From: Sphyrna mokarran
Taxonomy: Eukaryota
DNA: 64,000 nucleotides
Assembly: GCA_024679065.1 (NCBI GenBank)
Contig: JAGIQG010000004.1
Location: forward strand, 21,452,001 to 21,516,000
Direction of reading: 5' to 3'
Positions 6,893-51,674 of this stretch are shown piece by piece. The position numbers and the translations under genes were made by a program. The notes under the pieces were generated by a model. That model was not told where the DNA came from. It saw only the letters and a list, made by a program, of their open reading frames with translations, and searched no databases. Each line of letters starts with the position of its first letter. Position 1 is the first letter of the stretch.

Positions 6893-7027
6893 GGAAGGAA
6901 TTTTCCCATTCCCCCCAACACAGGAATCATAGCGGGTGGAGAGGGGGTGAGATGGATCATGCAGAATCCCATTGAGCTCGGGAGGGATTTTCAGGTTTTG
7001 TGAGAGCGCGGCTGGAAAATCTCACCC
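6893..7027. mobile_element. Harbinger-like MITE (~140 bp)
   Basis: TIRs ggaaggaattttcc / ggaaaatctcaccc. Homologous to 10715-10862 and 25905-26040. Confidence 0.7.
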
Positions 7028-10619: not shown

Positions 10620-10955
10620 CTAAATAAAAAGGCTTAAAAGTATTCAGCAGGTCCAGCAACATCTGTAGAAGAGAGATGCATAGCTCTGATGAAAGGTCTT
10701 TGCCCTGAAACATGGGGCAGGACTTTCCAGCCACGCTCGACCCAAAACCAAAATCTCCCACCTGTGATCAATGGAATCTCGCATGGTCCACTGTCCTTTT
10801 ACCCAGTCCTTCCCTCCTGGTCGCTAAAATTCCTATGGTAGCTGAGATGGGAAATTCTCCCCATGAACTCTTTCCCTCTCTTAAGATGCTGAGTATTTCC
10901 AGCAGTTTTTCGTTTATGTTTTAGATTTCCACCCCTTGCAGTATTTTGCTTTTGT
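10620..10955. mobile_element. Penelope-like terminal repeat (inverted arms around a hammerhead motif), split by a MITE
   Basis: Arms aaagtattcagcagg..catctgtagaagagag and ctctcttaagatgctgagtatttccagc are inverted copies. CTGATGA..GAAAC lies at 10686-10711. Confidence 0.7.
10715..10862. mobile_element. Harbinger-like MITE with 3-bp TSD (ATG)
   Basis: TIRs gggcaggactttcc / gggaaattctcccc, with atg on both flanks. Confidence 0.8.
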
Positions 10956-11002
10956 AACAGATGTCCCAGACAGCATTTGTAATCCAAGCAGTTTCAAGGG
11001 AA

Positions 11003-11292
11003 TTTTTATTTTATTAGTGTTACGAGTAAGGCTTATGTTAACACTGCAGTGAAGATATTGTGAAAATCGCCTAGTCACCATACTCCAGTGTCTGTTCAGG
11101 TACATTGAGGGAGAATTTAGCATGGCCAATGCATCTAACCAGCACGTTTTTTTAGACTGTGGGAAGAAACTGGAGCATCCGGAGGAAGCCCACACAGACA
11201 TGGGGAGAACATGCAGACTCCATACATATAGCGATCAAAGCTGGGAATTGAACCTGTGTCCCTGGCAACAGTGTTAATCACTGTATCACCAT
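11003..11292 (-). mobile_element. V-SINE type B
   Basis: Matches the type B core and tail. Confidence 0.9.
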
Positions 11293-12071
11293 ACAGCCCT
11301 TTTCCAAGGTACAGTTCTTTCATTGTGCCCAGAATGATGGCCCTCTCGGGAATTTACATGGTTTTTGGGGGGGAAGTGTTTAATCATGGTGTTGCAGTCA
11401 TCATGAGAGTGTGGAACAGACTTGATAGTCATTCTGGTCTTTTCTTTCTCATCAATTTTGTACGCATATGTTTCTAATAAAGGAGTTCTGACTGAGTTGG
11501 CTGTTCATCAGATGGCATTTATATCAAGTTTAATCTCTGTCAGTGTTGGATTGGGCTTTTGCAAAATGTTCCTTCAGATTATAATTTTGTGCACTTTTAT
11601 TCTTGGAAAAAAAAGCAACCCAACACTTCCATTCCTCAGAACAACCCCCCCCCACTCCCCGACCCCAATTATAACCCCAGCTCCTTGGGTATTATTCGCA
11701 GTGTTTAAAAAATATATATATTCAAAATGCTTCCAATTTCATCATTGCTGTGCCTGAAAATAAATTACAATTTTTCCTCGAGTTTAATTAAATGACTGTC
11801 GTCGTGTTGCTTTCTTCATCTCGCCCCCCTGTACCTTCCTATTACCTCTCACCGATAAAGAATTGCTATCTGTGGAATGTTAAGAAAGCTTCTGGGTAGC
11901 AAGGCTCATGAAATTTGTCACAAGATCTCATTTTCTTCATTGCGAGACGTGATGGTTATAATTGATGTGGAGGCTGTTGTAATTTACTGGCCAGCCACAA
12001 TTATCACTCACTCTCTGAGGTGATGTGACTGCAATTTAAATGCAGTGAAATAGAGAAGCGTTGCTGATTTT

Positions 12072-12073
<2 letters not shown>

Positions 12074-12113
<40 letters not shown>

Positions 12114-12161
12114 AGTGTGTATATATATTATATATATATATGTGTGTGTGTGTATGTGTGT
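12074..12161. repeat. Compound (TG)n(TA)n(TG)n microsatellite
   Basis: Seen directly in the sequence. Confidence 0.95.
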
Positions 12162-13133
12162 AAATTGATATGAGAATTCTGGATTAAGGCAGCACTGAAA
12201 CCATTCCTATTTAATCCCCCCTCTCTCTATCACCATATAGAACGCCTCACTTGCTGGACTATTAGGTATTCACGCTATTTCATAAGACAATTTTTTTTTT
12301 CCTCCCAGTTTTCATTTTGCTATACGTACGACAGCTCCGAGGGTGTTGGCAAAGGAAATCACCGAGGCACGTTTTTTGAGGTGACAGGGGTGACACTGCA
12401 GGAGCAGCAAATTTCATTATACGTTTAAAATTGAGTGCGACTTTAATAAAGCACAAACAGGCTGTAGATATCCAGCACAGCACTAATAGGAATACAGGAA
12501 AAAAAGAGGGCTCAGTCGTCCATGCTATTATCTTTATAGCATAGGAAAACATGCTGCAGGCAATCAGCATGAAATTCTTAATTGCTTAGCCTACTTATGC
12601 TGTGCTCTGGGGACAAATCCTGCAAATAAAATTGCCAGTAGGACCCTCATGTTAGTGCTAGGTCCCTGCTGTATACAAATGATTATTTTTAACTACTGCT
12701 TTGTTTTATAAGAATGCCCGAATGCTTTTCACCAATGCTAATAAACCATGATAATGTTAAACAGTCAAAGGCATCAATGCAAGAGGTATTTAGATGGTCG
12801 GTCGAATTATGCGTCAAATTAATAATAGAAAAAAATCCACGGAATGACTATATGCTAATGAAACGTCTTAAAAACCTGGAATTGTTTGCTACTTTTAAAA
12901 ATGTCACGCCTGCAATGTAAATGCAAATCAGCCAGTCTTAAAATGTAACATTGATCTATGATAAAAGTTTAAGACAGAAGGCATAGTGGCAGAATTCACT
13001 GAAATAGCCAGTTTCCCCTGTGACAAGTCCCGCCACACACTAGGTCTAACTGTCCTCGACACAAGAATTATTGGCTCTAGTTAATTATATGGGCAGTAGT
13101 CAGTTGCATATTTTTTTGTGAAGAATTTTAAAG

Positions 13134-13423
13134 GAGTGGTTAGCACCGCTGCCTCACAGTGCCAGGGACACACCTTTGATTCCTGGCTTGGATCATTGTA
13201 TGTGTGGAGGCTGCACCTTCTCCCAGTGTCTGCATGGGTTTCCTCTTGGTCCTCTGGTTTCCTCCCACAATCTAAAAGAGATGCAGGTTTATGTGCATTG
13301 GCCATACTAAATTCTCCCTCAGTATACCTAAACAGAGCCACAGTGTGGCGACCAGGGCATTTTCACAGTAACTTCATTGCAGTGTTAATGTAAGCCTACT
13401 TGAGACACTAATAAATAAACTTT
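13134..13423 (+). mobile_element. V-SINE type B
   Basis: agtggttagcaccgctgcctcacag ... gagacactaataaataaacttt. Confidence 0.9.
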
Positions 13424-13689
13424 AATCGAAAAAATGGCGGGTCAGAAATAGAGAGTTCTTTTTATTTTCTGTTTCCCAGGTCTGCCAGTTGATACTATTT
13501 AGATAATATTCACAATTACACAGTAGCCATTAGCAAGTGCAATGAATTCAGTGTTTCATGTGTTACAGTAGCAATAGGAAGCAGTAACTTTTTCTTTGAA
13601 AATATACAAAATCTTGATTTTTTTATTATAAAGAATGACGAAACAAAATCCCAGTCAATAATCAACAAAACAAACACACAATACAATCT

Positions 13690-14190
13690 AAAACAAAAGC
13701 AAAATTTTGCAGGCGCAGGAAATCCGAAATAAAAACAGAAGGTCCTGGAAAAATTCATCAGGTTTGCCAGCAGTTGTGGAGAGAGTTGGGGAGGGATTTT
13801 TCTGCCTTATTTGCCTCACTCCCACTGTCAGTGAGAATGGAGAATTTGATGCTCAGTCAAGTTCTACACTGCAGCGGCACCGGAGAATCCCAGCAAAGGG
13901 TAAGGTGGGAGGTTTACCGTATTATGCCTGGCGGTATGGGTAGTGGGAGGAGGGGGGTTGTCAGGTAGCCTGATATGTCCCCCTGCCCCCACCTGCATTT
14001 TTTCAACAACGTAAAACCCATTCCATTTTTGCCTCTCTTCAATTCTGAAGAAGAATCATATTGGACTCGAGACATTGAGGCGAATTTTCACATTCCATGG
14101 GAATCATAGTGGGTGAAGAGTGGACCATGGAATGGTCCATTGACCGTGAATGGGAATTTCTGGTTTCTTGCCCATTAACTCTTTCTTTCT
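13690..14190. mobile_element. Penelope-like terminal repeat fragments with MITE insertions
   Basis: Arm aaaagcaaaattttgcaggcgcaggaaatccgaaataaaaacagaa. Motif CTGAAGA-gaatc/gactc-GAGAC at 14045-14073. Confidence 0.65.
14077..14173. mobile_element. Harbinger-like MITE (internally deleted) with 3-bp TSD (ATT)
   Basis: gaggcgaattttc ... ttgccc, with att at 14074-14076 and 14174-14176. Confidence 0.7.
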
Positions 14191-15439
14191 TTGCTAAATA
14201 CTATCTCTTCTATATTCTAACATGTAGAATTAACACAAGTTAAACATGAATTAACTATGGTTAATATAAACTAAGTTGCACATCATATGGCAGGTACAAC
14301 TGAGGTAGATCTACCATACTGGTTCAGCAGTGCACTCAGATTTTGGTGATCACATTCAGTCACAAATTGCTTCAAACTCTGTCTTCCTCAGGAAGAATTT
14401 CAGCTCCTCTTCTTCTCAATACTGTGATCCCCAGCTGGTAGCAGTGCACAAACAGCCCAAGTTCCAGGGATGCACTCTTCACCACAAGGTTACGCATGCC
14501 TTCAGAACCTTCTCAACACAGTCTGGATGCTGTAGATCCACCAATGTTATCTTCATGCAACATAAAACAGCTGCAGCAACTGTACCTTTGCACATACTTA
14601 GCTTCTGGATCTGTCTTCTGCAGCTTGCATGTACTGCACTAAGGGATTCATCAACTGCTACTGCACAGATTGGACTGACTTGTGTCCTTGGTTCAGTTTG
14701 CCAGAGATTTGGGTTTCCAAACCTCAGTTTGTTTTCATTTCCTTGAGAAAATGGGAGAATCGGTTTTCTACCTCTATTCATGTTGTATTTCCCTTTCTCT
14801 CATCTTCAGTTTTTGTTTTAATTAGTATGTCACAAAAACCACAGATTAAACTTAAAGACACAGATTCCCTCACTGATGCAAAATCCATCACGAGCAGTTT
14901 AAGAAAAATACCCTTCCTTCTAATTCAATGCTATCATGTATCCTCTTGTCCCTCAACACATACACTCAGAACAAAATGTAAACCCAATGTGGAATTGTGG
15001 CATAAATTAGCAATCAGTGTACAGAGTTATAGTGTGATAGTAGGACAAATGTTAATACCAGTCTCAATGTCATCTCTATTTTTACCTTGTATTCTTTTGA
15101 CTGAAACTAATGGCTTTCATTTGCAAATGGGTAGGAATTCTTGTCAGCAAAAATATTATCACTAGCTGGAATTGGCAAGTGGGGAGTGGAAAATCACAAG
15201 TAATAGCGCTCAATTTCTGTTCAATTTGTGTTGTGTGCAATATTGCTGAACTGATAGTTCACATGTGGTATTGTTGCACACAGAATGGTAGAGAAATATT
15301 TAGGAAAGATTTTTGATTTGGAAATATGTTGTGTGTACCTATCACCTTTCCTCATCATCTTTCAAATTCTGTAAGGCTAGCAGGAATCAAGCTCCCTGCC
15401 AAATATCTCTTTCCCCTTGCCTATTTTCACTCCTGTAAC

Positions 15440-15775
15440 ACTGTCCTATACCACCCTTGCCTCAGCTCCCTGATGACTGAAACCCTCTTCTGGCCAGCCT
15501 CCCCTTCTACCCTATGTAAATTTTAACTCATCCAAAGTTCTGCAGCCCATTGCATCAAATTCAGTTCACTCATCATCCCTGTTTTTGCTGGCTTACATTG
15601 GCTCCCAGTCTGGTAATACTTTAATTTTACTTTTGATGTTTGTGTATCTCCTGTCTGTCCCTACTTCTGTAACCACTTAGAACCACCTAGGTCTCAGTGC
15701 TGGTCCAATTCTACTCCATTGCATATTCCTGCTTTTACTCATTTTGTTATTGTCAACCTTGCCTTCAGTGCTTGT
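15440..15775 (+). mobile_element. L2-like LINE 3' remnant
   Basis: LIQSSAA..IIPVFAGLHWLPV motif, typical of the L2 ORF2 C-terminus. Confidence 0.7.
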
Positions 15776-16450
15776 ATGATTTGATTTTGATGTGATTTAT
15801 TATTATCACATGCATTAGTACACAGTGAAAAGTATTGTTTCTTGCGCATTATACAGACAGCATACTGTACACAGAGAAGGAAAGGAGTGCAGAATGTACT
15901 GTTACAGACATAGCTAGGGTGTAGCAAAAGATCAACCAACAAGGTAGGTCCATTCAAAGGTCTGAAAGCAACCCAACTGTTCTTGGGTCAGTTGGTACCT
16001 GTTCTCAGACTTTTGTATCTTTTTTCTGACAAAGAAGGTGAAAGAGAGACTGTCTGGAGTACATGGGATCCTTAATTATGCTGGCAGGTTTTCTGAATTA
16101 GCGGGAAGGGTAGACAGTCAATGAATGAAGACCAGTTTTCATGATAGACTGGGCTTTATTCACAACCCTTTGTAAGTCTTATGGTTTCGGACAGAGCAAG
16201 AGCCATGTCAAATGATGCAACCAGAAAGAATGCTTTCTATGGTGCATCTGGAAAAGTTGGTGAGAGTCGTAGTGGACATGCCGAATTTCTTTAGCCACCT
16301 GAGAAAGTAGGAGCGTTGATGGGCTTTCTGAATTATAGTATCGGCATGTGGGAACCAGGACAAGTTGTTGGTGATCTGGATGCCTAGAAATTTGATGCTC
16401 TCAACCATTTCCATATCGTCCCCATTGATGTAGACAGGGGTATGTCCTCT
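15776..16450 (-). mobile_element. Rex1/Babar-like LINE 3' fragment
   Basis: VESIKFLGIQITNNLSW..KAHQRSYFLRWLKKFG..RCTIESILSGCI, with an (AAATC)n-type tail. Confidence 0.85.
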
Positions 16451-16603
16451 GTGTGGACCCTGATCCTTTCTGAATCAGTGCCTACTCTTTTGAGACGAGT
16501 CTTGGGAGCTATGTCTTTGATCAGGCTTTATTCCTTACATGGCTCAATGTTGCAGTCTGCTCAGTAATGCTTCATGGGAAGCATCACATTATGTTTTACT
16601 ACA
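16450..16603 (-). mobile_element. Possible short solo LTR
   Basis: TG...CA bounds and a minus-strand AATAAA, abutting the Rex1 fragment. No second copy seen. Confidence 0.3.
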
Positions 16604-16944
16604 TTAGTTCTTGTATACTACAGCTGAGGAGAATGCCTCCAAGTGCCAGTTGAGGCAATCTGGAACATCTGAAAGATAACATCCACAAATTTGGCCTGCA
16701 CATCTGGAAGTCAGCTCGGAGCAGTAATAGTTTACATCTTCAATCCTCTATCCTTCTTCCATTCCACAAGAGAGCCCTTTCAGTGGCTGGCAGAGCCCTT
16801 CGAGTGAGTGCAGGTTCCTGCAGTAAAGGAACAAATTGTCTGGAACAGGAAATTTCTTCAAATCATGACTTCATGACAGGAGCAGCCGTACATTAAAAGA
16901 AGACATCAGAATCATAAGAGAGTTCGTACTTGTTCGCTTTAAAA

Positions 16945-17420
16945 GTTTCATATGATGCGAGAGGGGCCCTTTGGCCCATCGAGGCTGCACCAACACATGT
17001 GATACACCTGAACTGCCGCCAAATCCCATCTGTTGGCCCATAGACCTCAATGTTATAATGTGCCAAGTGCTCATCCAGATACTTTTTAAAGGATGTAAAG
17101 CAACCCACTTCTACCACCCTCCCAGGAAGCGCATTCCAGACTGTCACCACTCTCTGGGTAAAAAGATTTTTCCTCACGTCCCTCCTAAACTTCTTGCCTT
17201 TCATCTTGTATCTATGTCCCCTTGTGACTGACCCTTCAACTAAGGGAAATAGCTCTTTCTTATTCACTCTGTCCATGCCTCTCGTGATCTTGTACACCTT
17301 GATCACGTTGGCCCTCGATCTTCTCTGCTGCAATAAAAACAACCCAGGTCTATCCAAACTTTCCTCATAACTTAAATGTTCCCCCCCAGGCAGCATCATG
17401 GTCAATCTTTTCTGCAGCTT
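16945..17420 (-). mobile_element. CR1/HER1 LINE 3' fragment
   Basis: ORF 16893..17405: LSYEESLDRPGLFLLQQRR..TRGHRYK..FTQRVVTVWNALPGRVVE. Confidence 0.92.
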
Positions 17421-17827
17421 TTCCTCTTCCTTCAGTGGAATGTGGTCCTAACTCTGTTACATCTGCCACGAAAAAAAACCTGTTAACTTCATCCTTGCTT
17501 TGCTGAACCTCACTTCCGAGTATTTGTGATGGACCATGAAATTTGGTAACTGGATAATTTACCAGTCTATTAAAGAAATAGAGTTCTTCACTCCATTTAT
17601 AATATTGAGTTTATAATATCGAGTTATTTCTGCATTCAGGATTAACTGCTAACAGCCAATAAGGAAGCAACCATACATCAAGGTTATAAGTACCCAGTGA
17701 TAACTTTACAACAAAGTGCTGGTAGCTGCAAAAGTAATTATAGGACTAATGGTATTCCAGATAAAATGATACGTTCTGACCATTTGTCCTCATTCAGCCA
17801 GGTTCGTCTGTTATGACCTGAGTAGCT

Positions 17828-18170
17828 AACCAGTGAGTATGTTTGAAGTATAGTCACCATTGTAATGTGGGGACCACAACAGCCAATTTGTGCACAGCAA
17901 GATCCCACAGATACTAGATAAATAAATGACCAGATTCATCTGCATTGGTTGAGGGATAAACGTTGGTGAAAAGATCAATAGAACTCATCTGCTCTCCTTC
18001 CTGCTTGGAAGGAAGATGGGGCTCCGATTAAATGTCTCCGCCAAAACTTGGCACCTGCAACAATACAGTACTCCCTCAATAACACACTGCAATATCAGGC
18101 TTGGATATGTCGACAGAGTGTGACTTGAACCCGCTGACTCAGAGAGACAAGTCCAATCAGTGATTCACCA
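17828..18170 (-). mobile_element. DeuSINE (SacSINE1-like)
   Basis: Deu-domain-like tattgagggagtactgtattgttgcaggtgccaagttttggcggagacatttaatcggagcccc on the minus strand. Tail cagccaatttgtgcacagcaagatcccaca as read on +. Confidence 0.7.
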
Positions 18171-18229
18171 TTGATCTATGACTCACAAAGTTTCTATAAC
18201 TAAAGGAGCGTCTTTAAGAGTTTTGTCGG

Positions 18230-18540
18230 TTGCATGTACGCTGAAAACCTCCAACCATGTCCGCTGCTGAGATTCTCTGGTGTCACTGCAGTGAAAAGAG
18301 TTTTACCTGAGCACAAAATTCTCCATTCTCTCTGGCAGTAACAGATAAGATCGGAGAAGGCTGCCCACAGGCACTGCATTAAAGAATTTATGAGTGCTCC
18401 TAGCTCGCTCAAAGAGTCACCCAGACTTGGATCTTTGGCTGTATTCTCTCTCCACGGATGCTATCAGACCTGCTGAGATATTCCAGCATTTTCTGCTTTT
18501 GTTTCACATTCTAGCATCCGCAGTATTTTGCCTTTATCTT
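18230..18540. mobile_element. MITE (about 18230-18366) followed by a Penelope-like terminal repeat (about 18400-18540)
   Basis: aaaattctccattc..ggagaaggctgccc; ctctccacggatgctatcagacctgctgagatattccagcattttctg. Confidence 0.65.
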
Positions 18541-19301
18541 AAAGATTTGATGAGTGGCAAATGCACAAAGTATTTCCAGGTTTGGTCACTGGTTTAGCTT
18601 TATTTCAATCCAGACATGAATAGGGAAAGTAAGTTTGGAATGAGTGCCTGTTGGTTAGAGAGGGGAAACTAATCCAGGACTTCCATTTCTGATCACTGTC
18701 CAATAAAGAGTAGATGGGTGGCTGCCAGGTGGATATCAGATTGCATTGGGATGCACAGATCAGCAGTCTCCTAGCACTCACTGTAGACTTACACATGAAG
18801 AATGGTTACTTGGGTGAGATAATGCAAGCCTGCAATGAGTTTCCAAATTTGGAAAAGGAAGAAATAGACCCCAGAAGTAGCCTCAGTGTTCTCGCTGAGT
18901 TCAGTAAGCACACAATAGAACGTTAAATCCCATTAAATATGCTCATGAAGTCAGTTTTTCTGGGCCCAATGCCTGAAGCCAAAGCTGTTTGAATATCTGA
19001 AAATGAAAGCAGACAAATTTTGTCAAAACTTTCTCCACATGCAAAACAATGAGGTCATGTTGAGATCGGTGTCTTGCCAAAGAATTTGTCTCCTACCTAC
19101 TGACCCCAGTTAAGAAGGAGGAACATTCTGACATCAGTATAATTGGTTGACCCATTCCACATGACTGCTACGTCATTGTGAACTATGAAACAAGACAGCA
19201 GCTTCTATATGATATTACTGTTCAACTCAGTGTATTTTCTTTGCTGATGCATCCATTATAGTGATCACTGATGGATGAAGAACAATTTAATAAAGCAACA
19301 T

Positions 19302-20232
19302 TTTTTTTTTATTCTTTTTTTATGGGACGTGGGCATCTCTAGCTGGAACAACATTTACTGCCCACTTCTAGGTATTCTTAAGAAGGTGGTGATGAACTGC
19401 CTTTTTCAACCACAGTCACCAGGCTGTAGATACACACACTGCTGCTAGGTAGGGAATTCAGGATTTTGATCCAGTGACAAGTGAAGGAAAGCTGATGTAT
19501 TTCCAAGTCAGGATGATTAATGACTTTGGATGGGAATCTCCAGGTTGTGGTGTTCCCAGGTAATCTATTGCTCTTTTCCTGCAGATAATAGTGGCCATGG
19601 GTTTGGAAGGTGCTGCCTAAGGTATCTTGGTGAGTTCCTGTGGTGCATCTCGTAGATGGTATAATCAGTTGGGGAGGGCATGAATATTTGTGGAAGAGAT
19701 AGCAATCAAATGAGGTGCTTCGTCCTGGATGGTGATGAGTTTCCTGAATGTTGCTGGAACTGCATTCATCCAGGCAAGTGGAGAGTATTCCATTCCACTC
19801 CTGACTTGTGTCTTGAAAGATAATGGGAAGGCTTTGGGAAGACAGGAGGTGAGTTACTCTCCACAGCATTCCTAGCATTTGACCTCGTAGACACAGTATT
19901 TAGTGACAAATCCATATCAGTTTCTTGTCAGTGGTGACCCCCAGGTTGTTGATAGTGGGGATTGGGGTTCATTGATGGTAACATTGTTGAATATCAGGGG
20001 GTTAGGGTTAGATCCTGTCTTATTGGAGATGGCCATTGCCTGGTACAAATGTCACTTGCTGCAAGTCATCACAAGCCTGAATATTGTCCAGGTCTTTCTG
20101 CATTTGGACATTGATTGCTTCAGCATTTGCAGAGTGCTGAACATTGTGCAGTCATCCGCAAATATCCTCACCTCTGACTCTATGACAGAGGGAAGCTCAT
20201 TGATGAAGCAGCTGAAGATGGTTCAGCCTAGG
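19302..20232 (-). mobile_element. CR1/L2-group LINE 3' fragment; likely partner of SINE type C
   Basis: RT motifs FADDCTMF and QVRSGMEYSPLAWMNAVPATFRKL. 3' tail is homologous to the type C SINE tail. Confidence 0.8.
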
Positions 20233-21558
20233 AGTCATCAGGCTATATGACCAAAAAATTATATGTCATGGAGGAATAATGGGGACTCGGACTGAGTTTC
20301 TATTCTGAGTTCTAGCATTGCAAAAGGTGCAGGTCAAAGAATAGATAATTCAGTGCAAAAAGAGGAGAAAAATTGGAGTAAAATCAGGACACATACTGAA
20401 TACATCTAGCATCTAGTGTCAGATCTGCTGCAGATAACGCCATAATACATTATGAAGGCATTAAGTTTAAAGGTAGATGGCAAAAATAAAATATGATACT
20501 TTGCTATTACAGCTGGAGAAAAGCACAAAGAGTACTTTACTGAAGAGAGGCCCATTGGGAATCAGCACATTGATACTTTATCTTCAGTTATCATGAGTTT
20601 CCATTGACTGTTGCAGTGTCCAAGCCTTCTAATCCTTCCAACTGATGGAGGAACAATCCCTGGCAAATGGCAGCTGTATAAGAATGTGGGAAGCAAATTG
20701 AAATTCGTTACAGGGTATTAAAGTAGAGAAATAATTTCTCTTTGAGGTATTAGTGCACGGTGACCTATTCTCAGTCGAAGAAGGATGGAATGCTCAAGTG
20801 GTCTGCAAAAGAGTACAATTTGGAGATGAGAAGTAAACAAGTCAAACCTGAGATCAGTAATAAATAATGGTGTCGATTTGGTTTAGCTAACTATAAACAT
20901 TGATCCTTTTTGGAATGAGAAATTCAGGAAAACATTCCTTTAAAACAAACATGCGCACATTTTGGTTTCCAACCCAGGTTACCGAGGATTTCGCTGGTCT
21001 GGTGACCTAAAGGAAGGCACTTGTCATTGGTGTTGAAATATAAAAATGAGTTCACACAGTTCAGTCAACTCAATGTGTAATATCCTTGGCTCTTTAAATT
21101 CATTAACCTCACATCCATTTTGGTATTGACAGGCGAAGTGGTCTGGATTAATGTTTCAGGAGTCTGGTCCTCTGTGTTCAGCCCCTTTCAGTAGGCTAGT
21201 AAATCTATGATAAACTGTACTTGGAGCATGAAGGTCAACACTTCTGGTTTGGTAGTCCCTGGCTGATGATTTGATCTGACTTGAATCAAACTAACAGCTA
21301 GTTCATAAAACAGAGTTAAATTGCAACCCATGCTGATAACAGGGACTCAATGGAGACTACACCACTTAGTTATATTTAAAGGGACAAATCTCTTTTCACT
21401 TGATGCACGTAGGTAACTTAAAACTATTTAAAAAACAATTTGCCAAGCTGTAACTCTGAACAGCAACACACAGAGCTTTCAAGCATTTCCATATCTTTCC
21501 TGTAACAAATGCGCCTTATTTAACCAGTTGCTCACTATGACTGAACAGTGTTCCTCGT

Positions 21559-21839
21559 TTAAAGTTTATTTATTAGTATCACAAGTGAGCTTACATTAAC
21601 ACTGCAATGAAAATCCCCTAGTTGTCACACTCTGGCAACGGTTTGGGTATTCTGAGGGATAATTTAGCATAGCCAGTGCACCTAACCAGCATGTCATTTG
21701 GACTGTGGGAGGGAACCGGAGCACCCGGAGGAAACCCACGGAGACAACTTGCAGATCCCCCACAGACAGCAACCCAAGCCGGATATCGAACCTGAGTCCA
21801 TGGTGCTGTGAAAAGCAGTGCTAAGCACTGTACCACCAC
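21559..21839 (-). mobile_element. V-SINE type B
   Basis: Head, core and tail present. Confidence 0.9.
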
Positions 21840-22204
21840 AACTGAATGGTAAAACCCAACTCTTAAACAGTGTAACTAAATTGGAAGCATCACATACTCT
21901 AGTTGTGCCAGGCAGTTGCCTGCAATTATGATGGGGCCATATTTACTGTGTCGTCAAATGGTGGTGTAACATAAAATGAACTTCTCAAGCATTTCACTAT
22001 GTGAATTTCTGCTCTGTTAAACTTATGTTTGACGTGTGCCAATGCCAAATAAAAAGTATCGCATGGCATCGGACTATGTTAATCTTTACCTTGGTGCTTC
22101 TGAAACCAGAGGCCCTACACCTCACTCAGATTGGGCATCAGTTTTTGTCACAAAACAAGCAACTCATCTTTATTTTCCAGCTGATTTGGTCCATAACCTA
22201 CATA

Positions 22205-22517
22205 ATGCAGCCAGCATAAATAAGGACGCCACACACCCTGGACATTCTCCCTTCCACATTCTTTCGTCAGGAAAATAATGCAGAAGTCTGAGGTTATATA
22301 CCAGCCTACTCAAGAACAGCTTCTTCTCTGCTGCCATCAGACTTTTGAATGGACGTACCTCACACTAAGTTGATCTTTCTCTACACCCTAGCTATGACTG
22401 TAAGACTACATTCTGCACTCTCTCCTTTCCTTCTCTTTGCTTTGGTATATCTTTTGGTATGCTTTTGTCTGTATAGTGCGCAAGAAACAATACTTTTCAC
22501 TGCACACTAACACGTGA
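22205..22517 (+). mobile_element. Rex1-like LINE 3' fragment
   Basis: AASINKDATHPGHSPFHILSSGK..KNSFFSAAIRLLN plus tail. Confidence 0.85.
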
Positions 22518-23469
22518 CAATAATAAATCAATTCAAAGTATAGAGTCTATTTTTCCCCTTTGATTTTTATAAGCTACAGAAAAGGAAACAGGTCAAATTA
22601 ATGATGTGTCCCAAATGTATAAACAGAAATCTGTTGTGACAGATCCCTATGACATGTGGTTTGGATAAAACGCCACGTTTCCAATCACTTGGGACAAAAA
22701 TTAAAAGACATTTTAGACAGCACTTTTTTTCTGCCAGTGGCTATAACTGTAAGCAGTTTTTTTCTGTTGGTGGCGGCGGGGGGGAAGAGAATGAATTCTT
22801 GGATTCTGACCTCAGCTTCTCCAGAAAACAACAATTTCTTTTTAAACTTTGAAACTGGAGATCATTTTCAATCCTGGAAGATGACAAATTTAAGAATGGA
22901 ATGGGAAGAGCAAAGAGTGGGAGGAATGACCAAAAAAGGAAAAGAAACAGACACAACATCTTCCGTAATTTGCAATGGATCCAGTCAAAAATGTTTGTAC
23001 TCCTCTGGCAATCTCTGCTGTGGGAAACACAGAGCTCTCTAACCATAGGACATTCTTCAAATCAATGCTTATATGTTTTAAGTTTCTATTAATAACTGAT
23101 TAACAAATCTGAAAAATTCATCTGGTCTGCTTGCAATAAGCATGAGCCCAGTTATCATTAAAATCCAAGCAATCAATATGTGACCACAGCTTGGACCTCT
23201 TGATTCTTTTGTTTTTTAATCTATGCTGACTTGATTTACTGCAGTGGTCACTGACATTATGGAAAATGATGACATTGCACCATTCAGAACTGTAATCTTC
23301 CCTACGCTAGCAAACCTTATGCAAGTCCTACAGACTGTCCTGATTTTGTTGCTTAGTTTGTGCTGGGTTCGCTTGTTGCAATCATGGTAAGGGTACCCAA
23401 GACCATGACATTTGTGCCCATGTCTAATTAGAGAAGAGTCTATCAGGATTCTCGCGCACAATCACTGAG

Positions 23470-23760
23470 TAATGCTGGAAAGAGCACATAAGTGACCTGC
23501 TCCAGGGCCTGGCAAAATTTGCCATTAACAGTCCAGCAGCGGGCAACCGAGGAGGTCATCCGGCCTGACTGCCTGCCCTCCACTTCAGCTACATTTGCAG
23601 CCGGGAGAGGCATGTGGTGTTCGAGATCACTGTCATTACCTTCTGTGCCCACTGGGCGCCGTAGGGGTTGGGGTGCATTATCGACCTCTTGAATTGCATT
23701 TTAATTTGGTGTTGTAAGTTTCCTTTCTACTTTGCTTTCTGTTTCGGGTGTTTCCCTACT
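23470..23760 (+). mobile_element. Tx1/L1-clade non-LTR element, ORF2 C-terminal remnant
   Basis: GLAKFAINS.QRATEEVIRPDCLP..HWAP*GLGCIID, followed by a T-rich 3' UTR. Confidence 0.6.
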
Positions 23761-23875
23761 TTTTGATTTAACCCTCAGTTAATTTGATTTAGTTTAATCG
23801 TTTCGCCAAAAAGATTGACTGTGAAGCCCTCCACACTGTCAAATAGCTGGTTGACGCTCATTGCCCATATTCTTT

Positions 23876-24056
23876 AATCATAGAATCCTACAGTGCAGAA
23901 CGAGGCCCTTTGGCCCATCGAGTCTGCACCGACCACCATCCCACCCCCACCCTATCCTCATATCCCTACGTATTTTATCTTCTAACCTACACATCCCAGA
24001 AAACTGAGGGAAAATTTTAGTATGGCCAATCAACCTAACCCACACACCTTTGGACT
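23876..24056 (-). mobile_element. Head-less type A SINE
   Basis: CR1-type tail and 3' core only. Homology ends at cacacctttggact. Confidence 0.85.
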
Positions 24057-24572
24057 CACATAGGGAGCTCGATTTTATGGTTCTCTGTGATGTATTTGAA
24101 GGTGGGGTTTTGGGGGGGGTGGGCACATATAATGCAGCATATTGACCTTCCTGCTTATCCTCAACTTGTTGTCTATTTTACAGTGGGGGGGGGGCAAAAG
24201 AGCTTGGTTGGAGGGAGGAGTGGATAGGCATCAGCAGGCCACCCAACCTGAGGCCTTTTGAGACCTTTAAATGACTGATTAAGGCTACTTGAAATGGTCC
24301 AATCTGCTTCTGCCTCAATTTTACCCAATGACATGGGGAGGGGGAGAGCGGGGCAGTACAGGTGCATGTTCAGCAACTTTTGTTGCACAGGTTGGTGTCA
24401 GGAAAGGAGGGGTGTGGGGGGTAGAACTTGTTTGAGGATCTCTTGTGCCCATCAAAGGCAACCACCCCAACACCCCTACCCAAGATTATACCTGCTTTGA
24501 ATCCTCTCTTCTGCCCTCACTGGCCTCTCATACCTTGCCGTCACCTTTCCTGGGGTCTGCCGGCAAGATGCT

Positions 24573-24737
24573 AGAATCATAGAATACTACAGTGCAGAAG
24601 AAGACTATTCGGCCCATCAAGTCTGCACCGACCACAGTCTCCACCAAGTCCTATTCCCATAACCCCATGCATTTACCCTGGCTAATCCCCTGACACTAAG
24701 GGGCAATTTAGCATGGCCAATCCAACTAACCAGGACT
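24573..24737 (-). mobile_element. Head-less type A SINE inside a longer MITE-like region
   Basis: agaatcatagaatactacagtgcagaag...ctaaccaggact. Confidence 0.8.
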
Positions 24738-25427
24738 TAAGTTTGAAATCCTCCGTAACATTCTCTTGTTCGGGCACTGCCTCTGATCCCAGAGGTTATC
24801 ACTACTCAAACCCGGTGCTGCAAGAACTGCAGGGCCAATCGGGATGGGCTTTCTTCTCGGATTAAGACGGAAGTCTCATCCTGAGCCAATCATCTCCATT
24901 TGCAACATAAAATGGCTACGATGCAACCAGCCTCTTGTGGAAAGGCCTCCCGATGAACTTTTCAGAGGGTAGTGGGGAATATGGCACGCTGTAAAATCTA
25001 GACTGTGAAAATTAGCCACTTGGGCACCATAACAGAGCGTGTAAGATAGTTTGCATTATTAAATTCAGCATCATACTGAGCTGTCATAACCAATTTTGGT
25101 AACAATGTTGCAGATCAGTTTTAGCTTTTGAATTATGTAGTTGTTTTTAATAAGTTAGTTGTTAGGTAACCTTGCATTGTTCTTCGAGGTGAGTGAAAAT
25201 GGCAAAGTGGTTCATAAGCTTCACTTGTGTACGAGATTTAAATCTGTCAAGCTATTTCTCAGTATAAAACATGGATTTTTACTGCTTTTATGGAAAAGTG
25301 GCTCCTGGAATGCAGGCAGTCGTTAACCTTACCAAATGAATTTGGGGCGAATGGGATCAAAGGTGATGGGGAGATATCAGGATTAATCAGCCATGATCAT
25401 AATGAATGCAACAGGCTCAAAGGGCCA

Positions 25428-25813
25428 AATCCATCATGCAAACCAGCCTCCCATCCACTGACTCTGTCTACACTTCTCATTGCCTTGGCAAAGCAGCCAG
25501 CATAATTAAGGACCCTACGCACCCAGATGTTCTCTCTTCCATCTTCTTCCTTTGGGAAAAAGATACAAAAGTCTGAGGTCATGTGCCAGCCAACTCAAGA
25601 ATAGCTTGTTCCCTGCTGCTGTCAGACTTTTGAATGGATTTACCCTGCATTAAACTGATTTTTCTCTACACTGTATGTATGACTGTAACACTGCATTCTG
25701 CACACTCTCCTTTCCTTCTCTATGAACGGTATATTTTGTCTGTATAGCACGCAAGAAACAATACTTTTCACTGTATGTTCATACATATGACAGTAACAAA
25801 CCAAATCAAATCA
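25428..25813 (+). mobile_element. Rex1-like LINE 3' fragment
   Basis: KAASIIKDPTHP..LPLGKRYKSL..LKNSLFPAAVRLLN plus caaatcaaatca tail. Confidence 0.85.
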
Positions 25814-25904
25814 AAAATGGTCTTCTCCAGCTCCAATCTTCCATGTCTTTATGCAAACATGAACCTTTGAATTCTGAGTTTATTTTCAAAAATTCCAACA
25901 TTCT

Positions 25905-26040
25905 GGAGTGAATTTTCCCATCCTGCTCAGCACAAGAATTGGAGCAAGCGAGGGGCACGGATCATGAAAATGTCAGTTGAAATGGGGAGTGGGGGGGAAT
26001 TGTCCGGTTTCATGATAAGCCAGGCCAGAAAATTCTGCCC
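25905..26040. mobile_element. Harbinger-like MITE with 3-bp TSD (TCT)
   Basis: ggagtgaattttccc / agaaaattctgccc, with tct on both sides. Confidence 0.8.
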
Positions 26041-26082
26041 TCTGTTCTTGGTGAGCCTGTTACACAGCTCCTGTTCAGAATG

Positions 26083-26410
26083 AGGGCAGCATAGTAACAT
26101 AGTGGTTAGCACTGGTGCTTCACAGCTCCGGGGACTTGGGTTCGATTCCCAGCTTGGGTCACTGTCTATGTGGAGTTTGCACATTCTCCTCGTGTCTGTG
26201 TGGGTTTGCTCCCACAGTCCAAAGACATGCAGGTTAGGTTGATCGGCCGTGCTAAAATTTCCCCTTAGTGTCCTGAGATGTGTAGGTTAGAAGGATTAAT
26301 GGGTAAATGTGTAGGGATTTGGGGGTCAGGCCTAGGTGGGATTGTGGGCGGTGCAGACTCAATGGGCTAGGTGGCCTCTTTCTGCACTGTAGGGTTCTAT
26401 GAATCTATGA
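26083..26410 (+). mobile_element. HE1-like V-SINE type A, full length
   Basis: A and B boxes (tagtggttagc, gggttcgattccc); tail ctgcactgtagggttctatgaatctatga. Confidence 0.92.
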
Positions 26411-27016
26411 GTTGTGCAAAACATCAGATGTGTATGAGATAATCATTGTGAATGCTTTGCTCCTGTTTCATATGCAATTACAACATACCTTCAGCACAAT
26501 ATTAAATATTTTAAAAGTTTGCCGTAGCTATTCAAAAGTGGCACTCAGATAAATGTAATTGCATCCTTGTCTCCATTAACGTCTTTCAGCATTTTAATTC
26601 CTAGGAGTTTTTTTCCTAATTTAATTTACTATTACCTCTGGAAACGAGTGCGGCTTACCACATGTGTGTAATGCTTGAAATTGCTTGAAGTAGCTTATGG
26701 TCTGGTTCAGTATCTGCTAAAAGGCGGTGGCTCTATTCCCATTGCAGGTATTGTCTTTTGATATTACATTTCAACAAATAGTGGATTGTCAGAGTGAACA
26801 ATAATTCATTCATATTAATCACTAAACCTAATATCCCAATATTTCAATGCTAGCAGTTTGGTTTTAAACCTCAGGAACGCATCACAGACTAACACTACTT
26901 GAGGCATGGGTCATCATAAAGTTAAATAAAGTAAACTGTAGTGCTGTTTAAGTGCATTTCAGTACATTTAAAGTTCTAATACTGACGTTACTGAGTATTT
27001 TATCCATGTAACCCAT

Positions 27017-27655
27017 GGGTGACACAGTGGTTATCACTGCTGCCTCACAGTACCAGGGACCAGGGTTCAATTCCTGGCTTAGGTCACTGTCTATGCAGAG
27101 TCTGCATGTTTTCTCTGTGTCTGCATGGGTTTCTTCCAGGTGCTCCAGTTTTCTCCCATAGTCCGAAAGTTGTGCTGTTTAGGTTCCATGCTAAATTCTC
27201 CCTCGGGTATCCAAACAGGCCTCAGAGCACGACGAATAAGGGATTTTCACAATAACTGAATTGCAGTATAATGCAAGCCTACTTGTATCATAGAAATTCT
27301 ACAGTACAGAAGGAAGCCAATTGGCCTATGGAATCTGCACTGACCACAATCCCACCCAGGCCCTACTACCACGTTCCTACATATTTACCCACTAACCCCT
27401 TCACCTATGCATCTCAGAACACTAAGGGCAATTTTGACACAGCCAGTCAATCAAACCTGCACATCTTTGGGTTGTGGGTGGAAATCAGAGCATCTGGAGG
27501 AAACCCATGCAAACACGAGGAGAATGTGCAAATTCCATGCAGACAGTGACCCAAGCCAGGAGTCGAACCCAGGTCCCTGGAGCTGTGAAGCAGCAGTGCT
27601 AACCACTGTGCTATCGTGCCATCCAGTATTGTGAGTAATAAATGAACTCTAACTT
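27017..27655 (+). mobile_element. V-SINE type B with a type A SINE nested in its tail
   Basis: Tail breaks at gcctacttgt (27287) and resumes as ttgtgagtaataaatgaact after 27625. Confidence 0.85.
27288..27624 (-). mobile_element. V-SINE type A, full length, nested
   Basis: atcatagaaattctacagtacagaagg ... aaccactgtgctatcgtgccatcc. Confidence 0.9.
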
Positions 27656-28493
27656 TAACCGCTGACTCAGATTCTACAAGAATACTGAGCAAAATAAAAC
27701 TGCTATCATTAGGTAAGTATGCTCATCAGCAGGAGAGGTTTGACAATGTCTGCATCAGTAATCCTAGTGTAACATGCGACTTATGTCAGATAACCATTTA
27801 GAAATATGTGGGAGCTGGTCCACAATTTAGAGATTTTGTGGATGGGATGGCAGAAAGGAAATGGAATATAAATCGCTGAACATGCTTGCCTGTGCTCTGT
27901 GTCTAATAGGCACACAGGGCAGAGGAGTCGAGAAGAATACCGTTGATTCCATCACAGTCACTTCATCTTCCTCGGTCTTGTGCCACTTGTCAGGCACGTG
28001 TGGGGTCATGTTTCGGCATTTGGTTGTCCTTAGCTACTTGTGATTTGCCTCCGTGTCGTTGAAGCTTAAGGAAGTGGATGTTATACATGAGAAGTGACAG
28101 CTTTTTGAAATGTTCACTCTTCCAAACAAATGCCATTGCTTTGAAGCTTGCTTTTCAGTCACTCTTGTTCTGCCTTTCTGTTTGGCAGTAGTTTATAAAT
28201 TTATAGATTAAGTTGATATCAATTCTGTAACATCTAAAAGTATAGTGTCCCATTTGCTGGCATGTAATCTGACAGTGAGAACTTGTTCCAAAATAAAATT
28301 GACAAATTCATTCAGGTTTGGTCCTTCAGTAATGCCACTGATTTGCAGATTATAAAATCCTTTGAGCTAATTCTGAACTTTAGTAGGTTAGTAAATGCCT
28401 GCTACTTGCTCAGATACCTTTTAAAGATATTTTGAGAAAAATAAAACTATGCCAGAAAAAAAATCTTTAAAATTGATTGTTAAAAAAATCTTC

Positions 28494-28702
28494 TGAGGGT
28501 TAAGTGTAATTAGTAAGCAGAGGTTAAGATTGGTTTAGGTTTGTTTCCGAGAGGGGTAAGTGTAGCTAGGAAACAGAGGCTAAATTGATTTAGATTTTGG
28601 AGAGGGATAAGGGTAATTAGGAAGCAGAGGTTAAGATTAGTTTAGGTTTCAGAGAGGGGTAAGTGTAATTAGAAAGTAGAGGGCAGGGTTGGTTTAGGTT
28701 TC
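28494..28702. repeat. Degenerate minisatellite, 4 copies of a ~50-56 bp unit
   Basis: Unit gaggggtaagtgtaattaggaagcagaggttaagattggtttaggttt. Confidence 0.9.
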
Positions 28703-29029
28703 ATTTTTTAAAAATTATTTCAATATCTATGCAACAAATGATGCAAATAAAGTATCAGCTTTCTGTCACTTTATTCTGCATTCCAGGAATTGTTAATCTT
28801 GCCCCACATGTTTAAAGAGGTTAATAATGAACTATTGAAAGTTCCTTCCCGTCAGCCGCTCAGGCCCAATGGCATCACAGACTACCTAGAAACTTAGTTC
28901 CAAAAAGGTAAACTTGTGTGCCGTACTTGACTAGGCAAACTTTATATTTTGTATAGTAACATTGTAGAGGGAAATGTTTCTTGCACTCTATCCATTCACC
29001 TCCATGATTAGCTTAGTGTGTGGACACCT

Positions 29030-29158
29030 ATGTCTGTATTTTACGACCTCGCCTGCTCGAGGTTTGTAAGGTTCTGCCCTCAGGTTAATGGAGAGTGCCA
29101 TTCTGCGAGTCTCTCTGTCCCAATTCTGGGGTGGGCAAGGCGGTAAAATCCCGGCCCT
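29030..29158. mobile_element. Harbinger-like MITE
   Basis: Ends ggcggtaaaatcccggccc; homologous to 10715-10862. Confidence 0.6.
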
Positions 29159-29299
29159 CAGCTCAACTTGACAAAACAGCATTTTAATAGCTTCTGCAGA
29201 ACTATCACCACCTGTGCCTTAGCATGAATGGGTAGTTTCAAGTGAGAGAAAATGCCATTCATTCCTCCTCTAGGCACATCTTTTGGTGCTTTATTGCTC

Positions 29300-30225
29300 C
29301 CATTACCACTCCCTTTGGCCTTGCACCATGAATCCTTTTGGCATTCAATCCTACCTACTTCACAGTATTTCATAGATCTCCCCTTGTGTTCTTTTCGCCA
29401 TCCTTTCCCCAAACACTGGATAATCAGGATAAACAATAATTCATTATTAATACGCTAAGCCTGAATATTCCAATCCTTAATACTGGCAATTCAGTTTTAA
29501 ATGTCAGGAACACATCACAAACGGGCACCCCTTGAGGTACCTTTCCCCTTGTACTTGCCTAAAACATCTCCAGTCTTTCCCACTTCTGATGAAAAGTCAT
29601 CAATCTGGGATTTTGGGGATGATTCCCCGGGGTCATTAGCCCCAGCCAGGAATCCCATTGGCCCACTGAATTGGGCGAGAGAGCCAAATCAGGATTATTG
29701 TGGGGGTGGGGGCGGGCGGAGCAGAGTGTCCAATCTGTTGCGAGTCTCCTGGTATGCTGCATCTGCCCCGATCAGATTCTCGTCCAGACTCGGCTTGTAA
29801 GTGAGGGAGAAATCCGGGTCACCCTCGTACCAATATGTTAAGGAAGGGGAGCTTACCCTCAATTGTGATAAATGGTTGGGCATGCTCCCTTTGTGTGCAG
29901 GGGTTTGTAATGTCCATGGTGGGTTCCGGTTGGGGACTGGACTCTCAAGATCGATGGTGCTCTGATCTCTGTAAAGCCAAGCTTGCCGGCGTGTATCACA
30001 TTGGAGACTTTCTTTGCAGTCAAAGAATGCCACCTGGCTAGTGCTGCCAACACCAACAGGAACATTTGGATTTTGTCGCTGGCAACAGCATTTAGATTAT
30101 TTTGGGGAGGAACGTGGCTATTAGCTCTATTCCTCTTCCCACAGATGTTGCCTCCCTGCTACGTATTTCCAGCACTTTCTATTTTCATTTCAGATTTCCA
30201 GCATCTGCAGTATTTTGCATCTGTA
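29300..30225 (+). mobile_element. Penelope-like terminal repeat split by a ~500-bp MITE-like insertion (29613-30119)
   Basis: cttctgatgaaaagtcatcaatctgggatt [insert] attagctctattcctcttcccacagatgttgcc..atttccagcactttctatttt. Confidence 0.65.
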
Positions 30226-39600: not shown

Positions 39601-41164
39601 TGTCCAATGCCATCTGTTTTAAAAATTCTGATTTTTTTAAAAAAAGAAACCTAATCCTCGCAGATTTTTTTTAACAATTTTGAGTTCTCGTGGATTGTTT
39701 TTTTAAAAATCGCCGTCTGGCTTCAGGGGACAGAAACAGGCTGTGGGATTAATTTGCCACATCTGAAGTTTGATCAACTTTCAGCCGCTCTTCCATTATT
39801 GATTCACAAAACAAAGACTTTGACCCATGGAATGATTTTAATTAGATGTCCTGAAGTGTGAAAATATCAGGTGCACATGGTTTGAGTCACGTTTACGTAT
39901 AAAGAATACGCTTATTTTTTTGCCATGACTGGGGATGCATGTGAATAACTGGGCAGAGAAATGACAGGCATGGTCAAATTGCTGTTCATTCTCATTTTGA
40001 TTTCGCGATGTTCTGCTAGGCGGCAGTGATAATTTTAAGGAATAGAAACTGGCTTACTTTCCATCCAGACCGCTGACCTAATCCCCTAATCCATGTTATG
40101 AATAACCTTTCGCTGTGTTTTAGGAAATCAAATTTTGTGTGTGCGTCGATGTGTAATTTTAATATGAAAAGAAGCACCGTGTCACCCACTTGTTTTGCTG
40201 TTAGTTGTGGCTGAGGTTTATAAATGACCTTGGGGGTAGTAGTGCTTGGTCTTGCAGAATCATAACAAGGAGGTGTCTGTGCCTTTTCTGCTTGATGAAT
40301 ATTCCTACCACTTCAGGCATGCTGTTATTGTAGGAGATGGAAGCTCGGCAGAAGTAAAGTGCAGAATGCAATTAGCCGGTCTTGTTTTTGCACTGTGACC
40401 CGGAATTTATTCAGCCATTCTAGACAGTAAACACATCAGTTAACTTAAATGGAACTGCTAAAAAGAACAGAGAAATACATGCACGCTATGTAGATTTCAC
40501 CAGGTTAGGCTTTTTCTTAAGGACAGGTAATAGCTAATCAATATAACAATTTTGCTTAAGCAATGGTCATTGTTTGTTCCATGCTACTTGCTGTACATTT
40601 CATTGGCTGATCAAATAGGTATTCGGCAATAACAATAATTGTTCAAGCAATAATGATAATTATCGTTTAAGCAACAGGTTTAAAAATTAAGAGAAACATG
40701 CGTCTCGTTATTTAGTTTGAAAAATGAACTAAAGGCACATAATTATTCTTCATCTTAGAGAAGGTTGTTTTCCCATTTTCTAAATAATAAAGGCTGCACC
40801 AGTGGTATTTTAATAGCACATTCATTTTTCATTCCGTGTCCAAGGTTGTTTTTAGTGGTTGAAAACATGATGCTTTTATCAAATTAAGGAAAATAAAATT
40901 GCGTCAAACTTCCATGTTTTGTGATTGGCCACGATGTTTAATATGCTGAGGTCAGATTGCCGCATGAGAATTATAATTAATAAAGAAAAAGCCAGCAAAG
41001 TGGCTCCATGGACCACTCGTTATAAAATAGTGTACAGTACGGATGTCACCAAATTGTTTTATTTTAAACAATTCCAACGTTGGCAATGGGATTTGCGTTT
41101 GACTACCTGCAGGCGGAGAAATGCATGTGGACCCTGCCAGCTTCTGTGTCAACAAATATGCTCA

Positions 41165-41585
41165 GAGTGTAACAAACACTGAGAGCACCGAAAAACCTCA
41201 GCCCGTCTGACGGCGTCGATGGAGGGAGAAACAAGAGTTAATGTTTTTGAGTTCGATGCACCTCTTCAGCACTCTTCTTTCACAATGTTAAATCCAAATA
41301 ATGAGATTAGTGCACGTGAGGGGACTGCTTCAATAGACCAGAACGGGATCGAGGAAGAGTCACATTTGACTCAAAGCACTGACTCTGTTTCACTATCCAT
41401 GCTTAGTCCCAGACCCACTGGTCGGAATGTTACCATCCCACCCATCAGAGCGGGCAAAGGGCGGACCATAGAAAGGTCCATTGACCGCGGCATGGGATTT
41501 TACAGTTTTGGAACGAGCTGCCTTTTTCCAGCATTTTGTTGTTATTTCGGATTTCCAACATCCGCTGGATGTTGCTTTTATTTTA
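41165..41585. mobile_element. Penelope-like inverted arms with a MITE remnant (about 41405-41510)
   Basis: gaaaaacctcagcccgtctgacggcgtcgatggagggagaaacaagagttaatgttt ... ttttccagcattttgttgttatttcggatttccaacatccgc. Confidence 0.6.
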
Positions 41586-45614: not shown

Positions 45615-45756
45615 GGATAAAAACAAATTACTGTGGATGCTGGAATCTGAACTCAAAAGGGAAAATGCTGGAAAATCTCAGCAGGTCTGGCAGTATCTGT
45701 AAGGAGAAAAAAGAATTGACATTTAGAGTCCAGATGACTCTTTGGCAAAGCTCTCT
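45615..45756 (-). mobile_element. Penelope-like terminal repeat with a decayed hammerhead motif
   Basis: ggatgctggaatctgaa..aaatgctggaaaatctcagcaggtctggcagtatctg..gagtccagatgactc. Confidence 0.7.
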
Positions 45757-46965: not shown

Positions 46966-47183
46966 AAGCTTTTGAATGGAAAAACTGTTTTGTTTTGCAA
47001 TAAAATCCATCCCATGAATATAATCAGTGGCGTAATGACAGTATGATGTTGTTGCCCTTATCACCGAACATTCCTCTATATAGAAATAGTGTCACTGTGA
47101 TGGTAATTAAGATTGTAAGTTCTGCTACTTTCAAGCTTCCTCAGAAAATATAGCAGAGCAAGCTACATGAAATTCGACCTACT

Positions 47184-51539: not shown

Positions 51540-51577
51540 AGCAGATGTTTCTGGTCGATTACCTTTTCGTCAGAGCT
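51540..51577 (-). ncRNA. Minimal type I hammerhead ribozyme motif (decayed copy)
   Basis: AGCU CUGACGA AAA GGU AAUCG ACC A GAAAC AUC UGCU. Both core boxes are intact, stems I and II partly intact. Confidence 0.55.
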
Positions 51578-51674
51578 GTGGGGGGAGAATTAGGATGTGA
51601 CGAGACTCAGGCAAATGAAAGGAAGGGGGAACGAGGGGACGGGGCAAAAGAAAACTAAAGAGAGAGAGATCAGA

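Follow-up and report, generated by a model that had tools for sequence, protein, structure and literature searches.

The DNA analysed here is a 64,000-nucleotide stretch of the Sphyrna mokarran genome (contig JAGIQG010000004.1, positions 21,452,001 to 21,516,000 of the forward strand), referred to below as the window. It is repeat-rich, with a G+C content of 41%, and an nhmmer profile found the tail or core of a Penelope-like hammerhead repeat at about ten places in it. By alignment, the hammerhead region is kept in eight of these copies, which read CTGANGA box, stem II (in one of two subtypes), GAAA box, C, triplet and AACTC. Three of the eight hosts are broken at one alignment column, directly after the triplet (Table 1). 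In the first two the insert is a short miniature inverted-repeat transposable element (MITE) of a single family, here called family A, while the third was probably interrupted at the same position by another element. The other five hosts, which the initial annotation missed, are intact at the triplet. The analysis rests on the window, on a comparison with read contigs over the case 1 locus only, and on published papers.

Table 1. Hosts, inserts and MITE copies in the window, numbered from its first letter (TIR, terminal inverted repeat; SINE, short interspersed nuclear element)
Feature	Positions	Strand	Remarks
A3, family A	6893..7027	+	Outside hosts; no clear duplication; AAAGAC flank at CCAGCC-type end
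Host 1, inverted tail arm	10628..10685	-	nhmmer to host profile, E=0.0013; BLAST to host tail
Host 1, decayed core	10682..10714	+	Stem I 5' strand, CTGATGA, weak stem II, GAAA-C-ATG
A1, family A (case 1)	10715..10862	-	148 bp; both terminal repeats present
Right duplication ATG and host 1 tail	10863..10955	+	ATG 10863-10865, then AACTC
H4, host tail arm	13689..13788	-	Profile and BLAST; presumed partner of host 2
Family-B MITE	13789..13921		Adjoins inner end of H4; duplication uncertain (TTG/TTA)
Host 2, decayed core	14041..14076	+	Second stem-II subtype; CTGAAGA (14045) ... GAGA-C-ATT
A2, family A (case 2)	14077..14173	+	97 bp; most of right terminal repeat missing (3/14 complementarity)
Right duplication ATT and short host 2 tail remnant	14174..14200	+	ATT, then AACTC
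Host H5	18408..18536	+	Unbroken at triplet
A4, family A	25905..26040	+	Outside hosts; duplication TCT/TCT; AAGAAC flank at CCAGCC-type end
Host 3, decayed core	29582..29614	+	CTGATGA ... GGGA-T-TTT; GAAA box lost
Case 3 insert	29615..30119		505 bp; left end well TIR-like, right end poorly so; middle weakly SINE-like
ATT and host 3 tail	30120..30224	+	BLAST and profile
Host H10	41150..41276	-	Unbroken at triplet (AAAAC-ATT-AACTC); control site
A5, family A	41420..41516	+	Inside H7, about 40 nt downstream of triplet; right end truncated
Host H6	45618..45751	-	Unbroken at triplet
A6, family-A-like	46799..46891	-	Outside hosts; internally deleted; duplication ATG/ACG; flank TAAAAC
Host H9	51484..51579	-	Unbroken at triplet
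A7, family A	54510..54638	+	Right end lost

Host 1 has the layout of a head-to-head Penelope-like stub. Its CTGATGA box (10686-10692) and GAAAC (10707-10711) are followed by ATG at 10712-10714, and the same ATG recurs exactly on the far side of the family-A copy A1, which agrees with the initial annotation of a MITE placed after GAAAC with ATG duplicated. The terminal 14-mers of A1 are complementary at 10 of 14 positions (random pairs reach 9 of 14 in 0.3%). An empty host form that skips the insert occurs in five records in relatives' contigs, and empty host forms carry one triplet only. Run X5 has an orthologous contig that includes A1 and shows 59 differences and two gaps over 10400-10915, about 515 bases.

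The second case also stood as it had been annotated, with GAGAC-ATT, an exact ATT/ATT duplication and AACTC around A2. A1 and A2 are homologous in opposite orientation only (local score 33, shuffle maximum 23); in the same orientation the score is 20 and the shuffle maximum 21. Alignment places hosts 1 and 2 in different stem-II subtypes. The opposite MITE orientation and the different host subtypes thus make cases 1 and 2 independent events. Inverted, truncated arms are seen in host 1 and in the head-to-head pairs of H4 with host 2 and of H10 with H7; H4 and host 2 probably belong to one stub, with H4 as its inverted arm, and the H10/H7 pair spans 41150-41580, with H10 the best-preserved empty site. 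The family-B MITE beside H4 may lie only a few bases from the triplet, on the other strand, and is a candidate fourth hit beside it. Family B also has copies at 5586-5715, 18240-18366 and 51974-52087.

In the third host the break falls, in host register, between 29614 and 29615, and a TIR-like 14-mer starts there (12 of 14 positions fit the pattern). The duplication reads TTT/ATT, with one mismatch, and the insert ends are complementary at 7 of 14 positions, as are 4.8% of random pairs. A boundary at 29613 was rejected on its terminal complementarity of 4 of 14. Scores of the insert against family A lie within the shuffle range and neither nhmmer nor BLAST links the two, and a single family for all three inserts was rejected. 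The insert shows no excess of fold-back structure (z = 0.13). The middle of the insert, at 29859-30052, has a weak nhmmer match (E 0.006) to a SINE copy at 21571-21795, and the insert may accordingly be either composite or a MITE that contains a SINE. Of the pattern originally proposed, the single column in three hosts and the exactness of cases 1 and 2 survive, but the start of the third insert, its perfect ATT/ATT duplication and its identity with the same MITE do not.

Family A has seven copies in the window: two at the triplet, one inside a host about 40 nt downstream of it and four outside hosts, including the one with a TCT duplication at 25905 (A4) that had already been listed. All are short and non-coding (93-148 bp), with ends that start GG or GA. 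Terminal complementarity is 10 of 14 in A1, A3 and A4, and is lower in the degraded A2 (3 of 14) and A6 (4 of 14). The 3-bp duplication is exact in three of the five two-ended copies (ATG, ATT and TCT), has one mismatch in A6 and is absent in A3, so that the elements behave as the proposed PIF/Harbinger-type MITEs with 3-bp duplications. A family-A profile found no further copy with E < 0.1, and its E-values are circular, the profile having been built from the seven copies that it later recovered. Under uniform insertion, two of seven copies on eight host triplets has P about 3e-7, a value that overstates the surprise since the window was chosen because of the pattern. An insertion preference of some kind is nevertheless likely.

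Some MITE-like remnants are more complicated. The second end of A6 is family-B-like, and another TIR-bounded stretch (46901-47013) follows it directly. The left end of A7 forms a near-perfect hairpin with a 20-bp stem (54516-54567), which gives weak chance matches to microRNA families. A pair of TIR-like ends at 28990-29156, 77 bp apart, share one orientation and are each followed by TCAG; they are perhaps remnants of nested or tandem MITEs.

The initial annotation took AACGTTAAC/AACATTAAC to be the preferred target. This target, AACRTTAAC, was rejected: it is found at none of the three two-ended family-A sites outside hammerheads, and three occurrences in the window (41245, 47489 and 59082) are unoccupied. 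The broader idea of a sequence preference fared better, as an RRAC half-site before the duplication is common to the sites. All three two-ended copies outside hammerheads have RRAC at -7 to -4 on one side (AAAGAC, AAGAAC and TAAAAC), and cases 1 and 2 also carry it (TGAAAC and CGAGAC). An RRAC on one side or the other is found at 2.8% of positions in the window, giving P 2e-5 for three of three; for AC only, the background is 10% and P 1e-3. In run X5, a majority consensus of the letters preceding 37 MITE ends finishes AGACAC-AAT. In random sets ACA at -5 to -3 arises in 2% of trials and a 6 of 9 match to the hammerhead site in 4%, and the X5 consensus thus lends modest independent support to an RRAC-like preference. 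The flank of A3, read as GTCTTT, is of interest here. Harbinger3_DR has the target AAACACCWGGTCTTT (PMC3016246), and the target preferences given for PIF/Harbinger elements run from 9 bp in plants to 15 bp in vertebrates (PMC2836001).

The read contigs indicate how often family A lies in a hammerhead. Taking only MITE ends at least 80% like the decayed copy of case 1, the summed depth of the MITE-end bin was 2785 in run X1 and 2534 in X5, and that of the hammerhead bin 375 and 84. Composites in the orientation of case 1 therefore make up at most about 19% (X1) or 4% (X5) of MITE ends in contigs, and the neighbouring depth bin fits few composites better. The 37 loose MITE ends of X5 have mixed flanks, with an agreement of 0.39; unrelated AT-rich flanks give 0.36-0.43 and the shared host tail at 10887 gives 0.56-0.64. 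For the reverse orientation, a hand count puts the agreement of the X5 loose-end consensus with the host tail at 11 of 30 positions, a result simulated in 1% of trials with a 20% shared flank and in 7% with a 15% share, which puts such composites, as a rough bound, at no more than about 15% of MITE ends. Hammerhead composites are a minority and insertion is not hammerhead-specific. These rough bounds exclude most copies lying in hammerheads, but are compatible with a hot spot that takes up a few per cent of them, still far above uniform insertion.

The interrupted hosts were in poor condition. Hosts 1, 2 and 3 keep the CTGANGA box, but none has the full set of GAAA box, palindromic junction, cleavable triplet and paired stems I and II. 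Host 1 reads GAAA-C-ATG, with a stem II of only -1.2 kcal/mol; the box is GAGA in host 2 and GGGA in host 3, and stem II is predicted in neither. On these structural predictions, all three derive from minimal hammerheads without functioning as such. Their assignment as Penelope-like follows from motif and layout, and the stubs appear to have no open reading frame (ORF).

Host 1 has G at position 17 in both duplicated triplets. By the NUH rule, G at position 17 is non-cleavable. As both triplets read ATG, the G must have been in place before the insertion, and host 1 was probably dead by then. Hosts 2 and 3 now have no intact GAAA box. Dating host decay by the ATT reading was rejected, as both copies follow C and CpG decay could strike each separately. 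Runs X21 and X23, from two related organisms, have one contig each that aligns to 10541-10695, covering flank, inverted arm and core start, and the MITE body has zero depth there (bins 10740-10839) while the hammerhead repeat is far more abundant. Across the compared runs family A looks lineage-restricted, and we infer that the host 1 stub predates its spread. Most likely the insertions struck old debris and switched off no ribozyme activity. The suggestion that the MITEs systematically disable retroelement ribozymes does not fit the mixed flanks of MITE ends, the earlier G17 of host 1 or hosts that are decayed, apparently ORF-less stubs.

The explanation that we favour, and hold to be probable, is that the inserts share one position through a transposase preference for RRAC before the duplicated triplet, which the GAAAC of the hammerhead happens to satisfy. 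A PIF/Harbinger-like (PHIS) transposase would mobilise family A in trans and, by analogy with Harbinger3_DR, would read an extended, roughly palindromic target. The hammerhead core would offer it a good half-site at a fixed position of a repeat that recurs roughly every 8 kb. The result would be a modest, recurrent hot spot, owing to the great abundance of the host (eight core-bearing copies in 64 kb) and to the core being its most conserved part. Such a hot spot might take a few per cent of insertions, the present window being a selected high draw.

Several observations weigh against this. RRAC was picked post hoc from three sites. Of the family-A ends away from the triplet only 3 of 8 have it, and of the other TIR-like ends 1 of 19. 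Among RRAC sites two or more of seven copies at the triplet has P = 4e-4, and among RRAC-R-N-T sites P = 0.019; the 4-bp half-site thus under-predicts the window, and either a longer motif or window selection would be needed. In case 3 an element of another family has hit this column too, and the half-site that remains in host 3 is degraded. Contig depth is not copy count and the contig figures cover case 1-like ends only. The agreement of 0.39 exceeds that of a random-flank simulation (0.354 +/- 0.009), which leaves room for some shared flank. The empty ortholog in X21 and X23 is itself deduced, as 78 letters after 10695 did not align. Finally, a Pfam search of 120 of the 191 window frames (at least 70 amino acids) found no transposase.

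Chance combined with selection is an unlikely alternative: MITEs and hosts are abundant, the preference would be for an A-N-T-like triplet only, and the window was picked out of very many for the coincidence. The host does supply an ATT or GTT triplet, the triplet of the read consensus is AAT, and case 3 is imperfect. Uniform insertion gives the very low probability cited above, however, and the RRAC half-site is seen again both in the reads and at sites outside hosts.

It is slightly less probable that the MITEs target the host itself, recognising a long hammerhead sequence in the Penelope pseudo-long terminal repeat (pseudo-LTR) as a multicopy safe harbour and destroying ribozymes incidentally, much as Dada elements occupy fixed sites in multicopy RNA genes (PMC3706591). 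Three of eight hosts are broken at one column by two unrelated insert families, in two orientations and two subtypes, and a short motif under-predicts the occupancy of the triplet. Yet five of the seven family-A copies lie away from the triplet, one of them inside a host only 40 nt off; MITE ends in contigs have mixed flanks, with composites a minority; H10, which matches best of all sites in the window, carries no insert; and host 1 could already not be cleaved. We regard it as similarly doubtful that several PHIS-like families have converged on the cleavage position of shark Penelope-like repeats as a strong landing pad throughout the genome, far above what a short motif predicts. If they had, a DNA transposon lineage would be on its way to a safe harbour within the ribozyme of another transposon, a rare case, comparable to Dada, of a DNA transposon targeting the catalytic RNA of another element.

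A retention bias, in which MITEs land widely and selection favours breaks in a self-cleaving motif within a transcribed region, is very improbable: self-cleavage in pre-mRNA could be harmful, but any break in the core would serve and all three share a single column, host 1 could not be cleaved to begin with, the window frames scanned revealed no gene, and in vitro minimal hammerheads show no activity as monomers and only weak activity as dimers (PMC4209133). Equally remote is the amplification of one or two host-plus-MITE chimeras by Penelope machinery, for which we found no support although a nested MITE might in principle be retrotransposed; the opposite orientations, two stem-II subtypes, ATG and ATT duplications, unrelated third insert and small share of contigs that can be composites all speak against it, as the initial annotation had anticipated in doubting a single amplified chimera.

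We therefore return to real, independent insertions at what is probably a modest hot spot of a PIF/Harbinger-like MITE. If a transposase preference for RRAC is indeed responsible, there would be an abundant shark-type MITE family with a Harbinger3_DR-like extended target that can be read genome-wide. Recurrent independent insertions at a single point of another repeat would then mislead the calling of chimeras in repeat libraries and the use of presence/absence markers. This reading implies no control of ribozymes, and the ribozyme-disabling story is not supported.

The rest of the window contains about 20 copies of one 300-bp SINE-like repeat. Decayed retroelement-like frames lie at 3174-3581 on the plus strand and at 16211-16474, 16893-17447, 19378-19899 and 56664-57122 on the minus strand; we take them to be of LTR type and of long interspersed nuclear element (LINE) type. 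The only Pfam match above cut-off among them is ALKBH8_N (E 4e-9) at 16211-16474, and no host exon was identified. The Pfam search of 120 of the 191 window frames found no reverse transcriptase and no match combining reverse transcriptase with GIY-YIG. Rfam returned no hammerhead family on the window at E up to 1, and only five weak, unrelated matches. Pattern scans of viral and metagenome contigs for host and MITE gave no loci.

In the accessible text of published accounts, nested DNA transposons are not mentioned for Penelope-like minimal hammerheads (PMC4209133, PMC8557442), nor is nesting in what is available of a 2026 preprint on retrozymes and Penelope-like elements. We found no published report of MITEs nested in such hammerheads in a partial coverage with most subscription journals and Repbase/Dfam outside it, which does not establish absence from print. 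The part consulted of a study that did not detect Harbinger in the elephant shark urged that other cartilaginous fish be checked (PMC9179366).

Both components, the MITE and the hammerhead host, are of known kinds. The hosts resemble the minimal hammerheads of metazoan Penelope-like pseudo-LTRs in their CUGANGA and GAAA boxes and short stem I (PMC4209133, PMC8557442), and in having no stem III beyond the palindromic junction that replaces it (PMC4209133). They also resemble Penelope-like insertions in occurring as scattered 5'-truncated copies with inverted arms, and a head-to-head layout is reported for truncated insertions (PMC8557442). Unlike the published examples, all three interrupted hosts have core lesions, and among the frames scanned none with reverse transcriptase or GIY-YIG links them to a Penelope-like clade.

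Family A shares with Harbinger3_DR, mPing and PIF its short, non-coding form, G-initiated terminal repeats and 3-bp duplication (PMC3016246, PMC2836001). As in Harbinger3_DR, the preference may extend past the duplication, and the RRAC half-site resembles AAACAC/GTCTTT (PMC3016246), although in family A usually one half-site matches and no transposase is linked. Its duplications (ATG, ATT, TCT and ATG/ACG) are not TWA or CWG. PIF/Harbinger elements sensu stricto duplicate TWA (PMC4482050), which none of the five two-ended copies does. The fit to Pangu, a PHIS group with an ANT duplication and repeats that start AG or GG (PMC4482050), is partial: the ATT of case 2 and the read consensus AAT agree with ANT. 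In contrast, ATG, TCT/AGA and ACG (A1, A4 and A6) break ANT, the accessible host list of Pangu gives no vertebrate (PMC4482050), and no transposase was found with family A. Family A works like a PHIS MITE, and we file it under no named group.

Dada, like family A, is a DNA transposon that recurs at a single position in a sequence of RNA origin present in many copies, but it has strict target specificity, 6-7 bp duplications and conserved small nuclear RNA and transfer RNA genes as targets (PMC3706591). Family A makes 3-bp duplications and lies mostly elsewhere, with two of its seven copies at the triplet in the window and a minority in contigs. It differs from Harbinger3_DR, mPing and PIF in that its probable preferred site coincides with the ribozyme core of another element.

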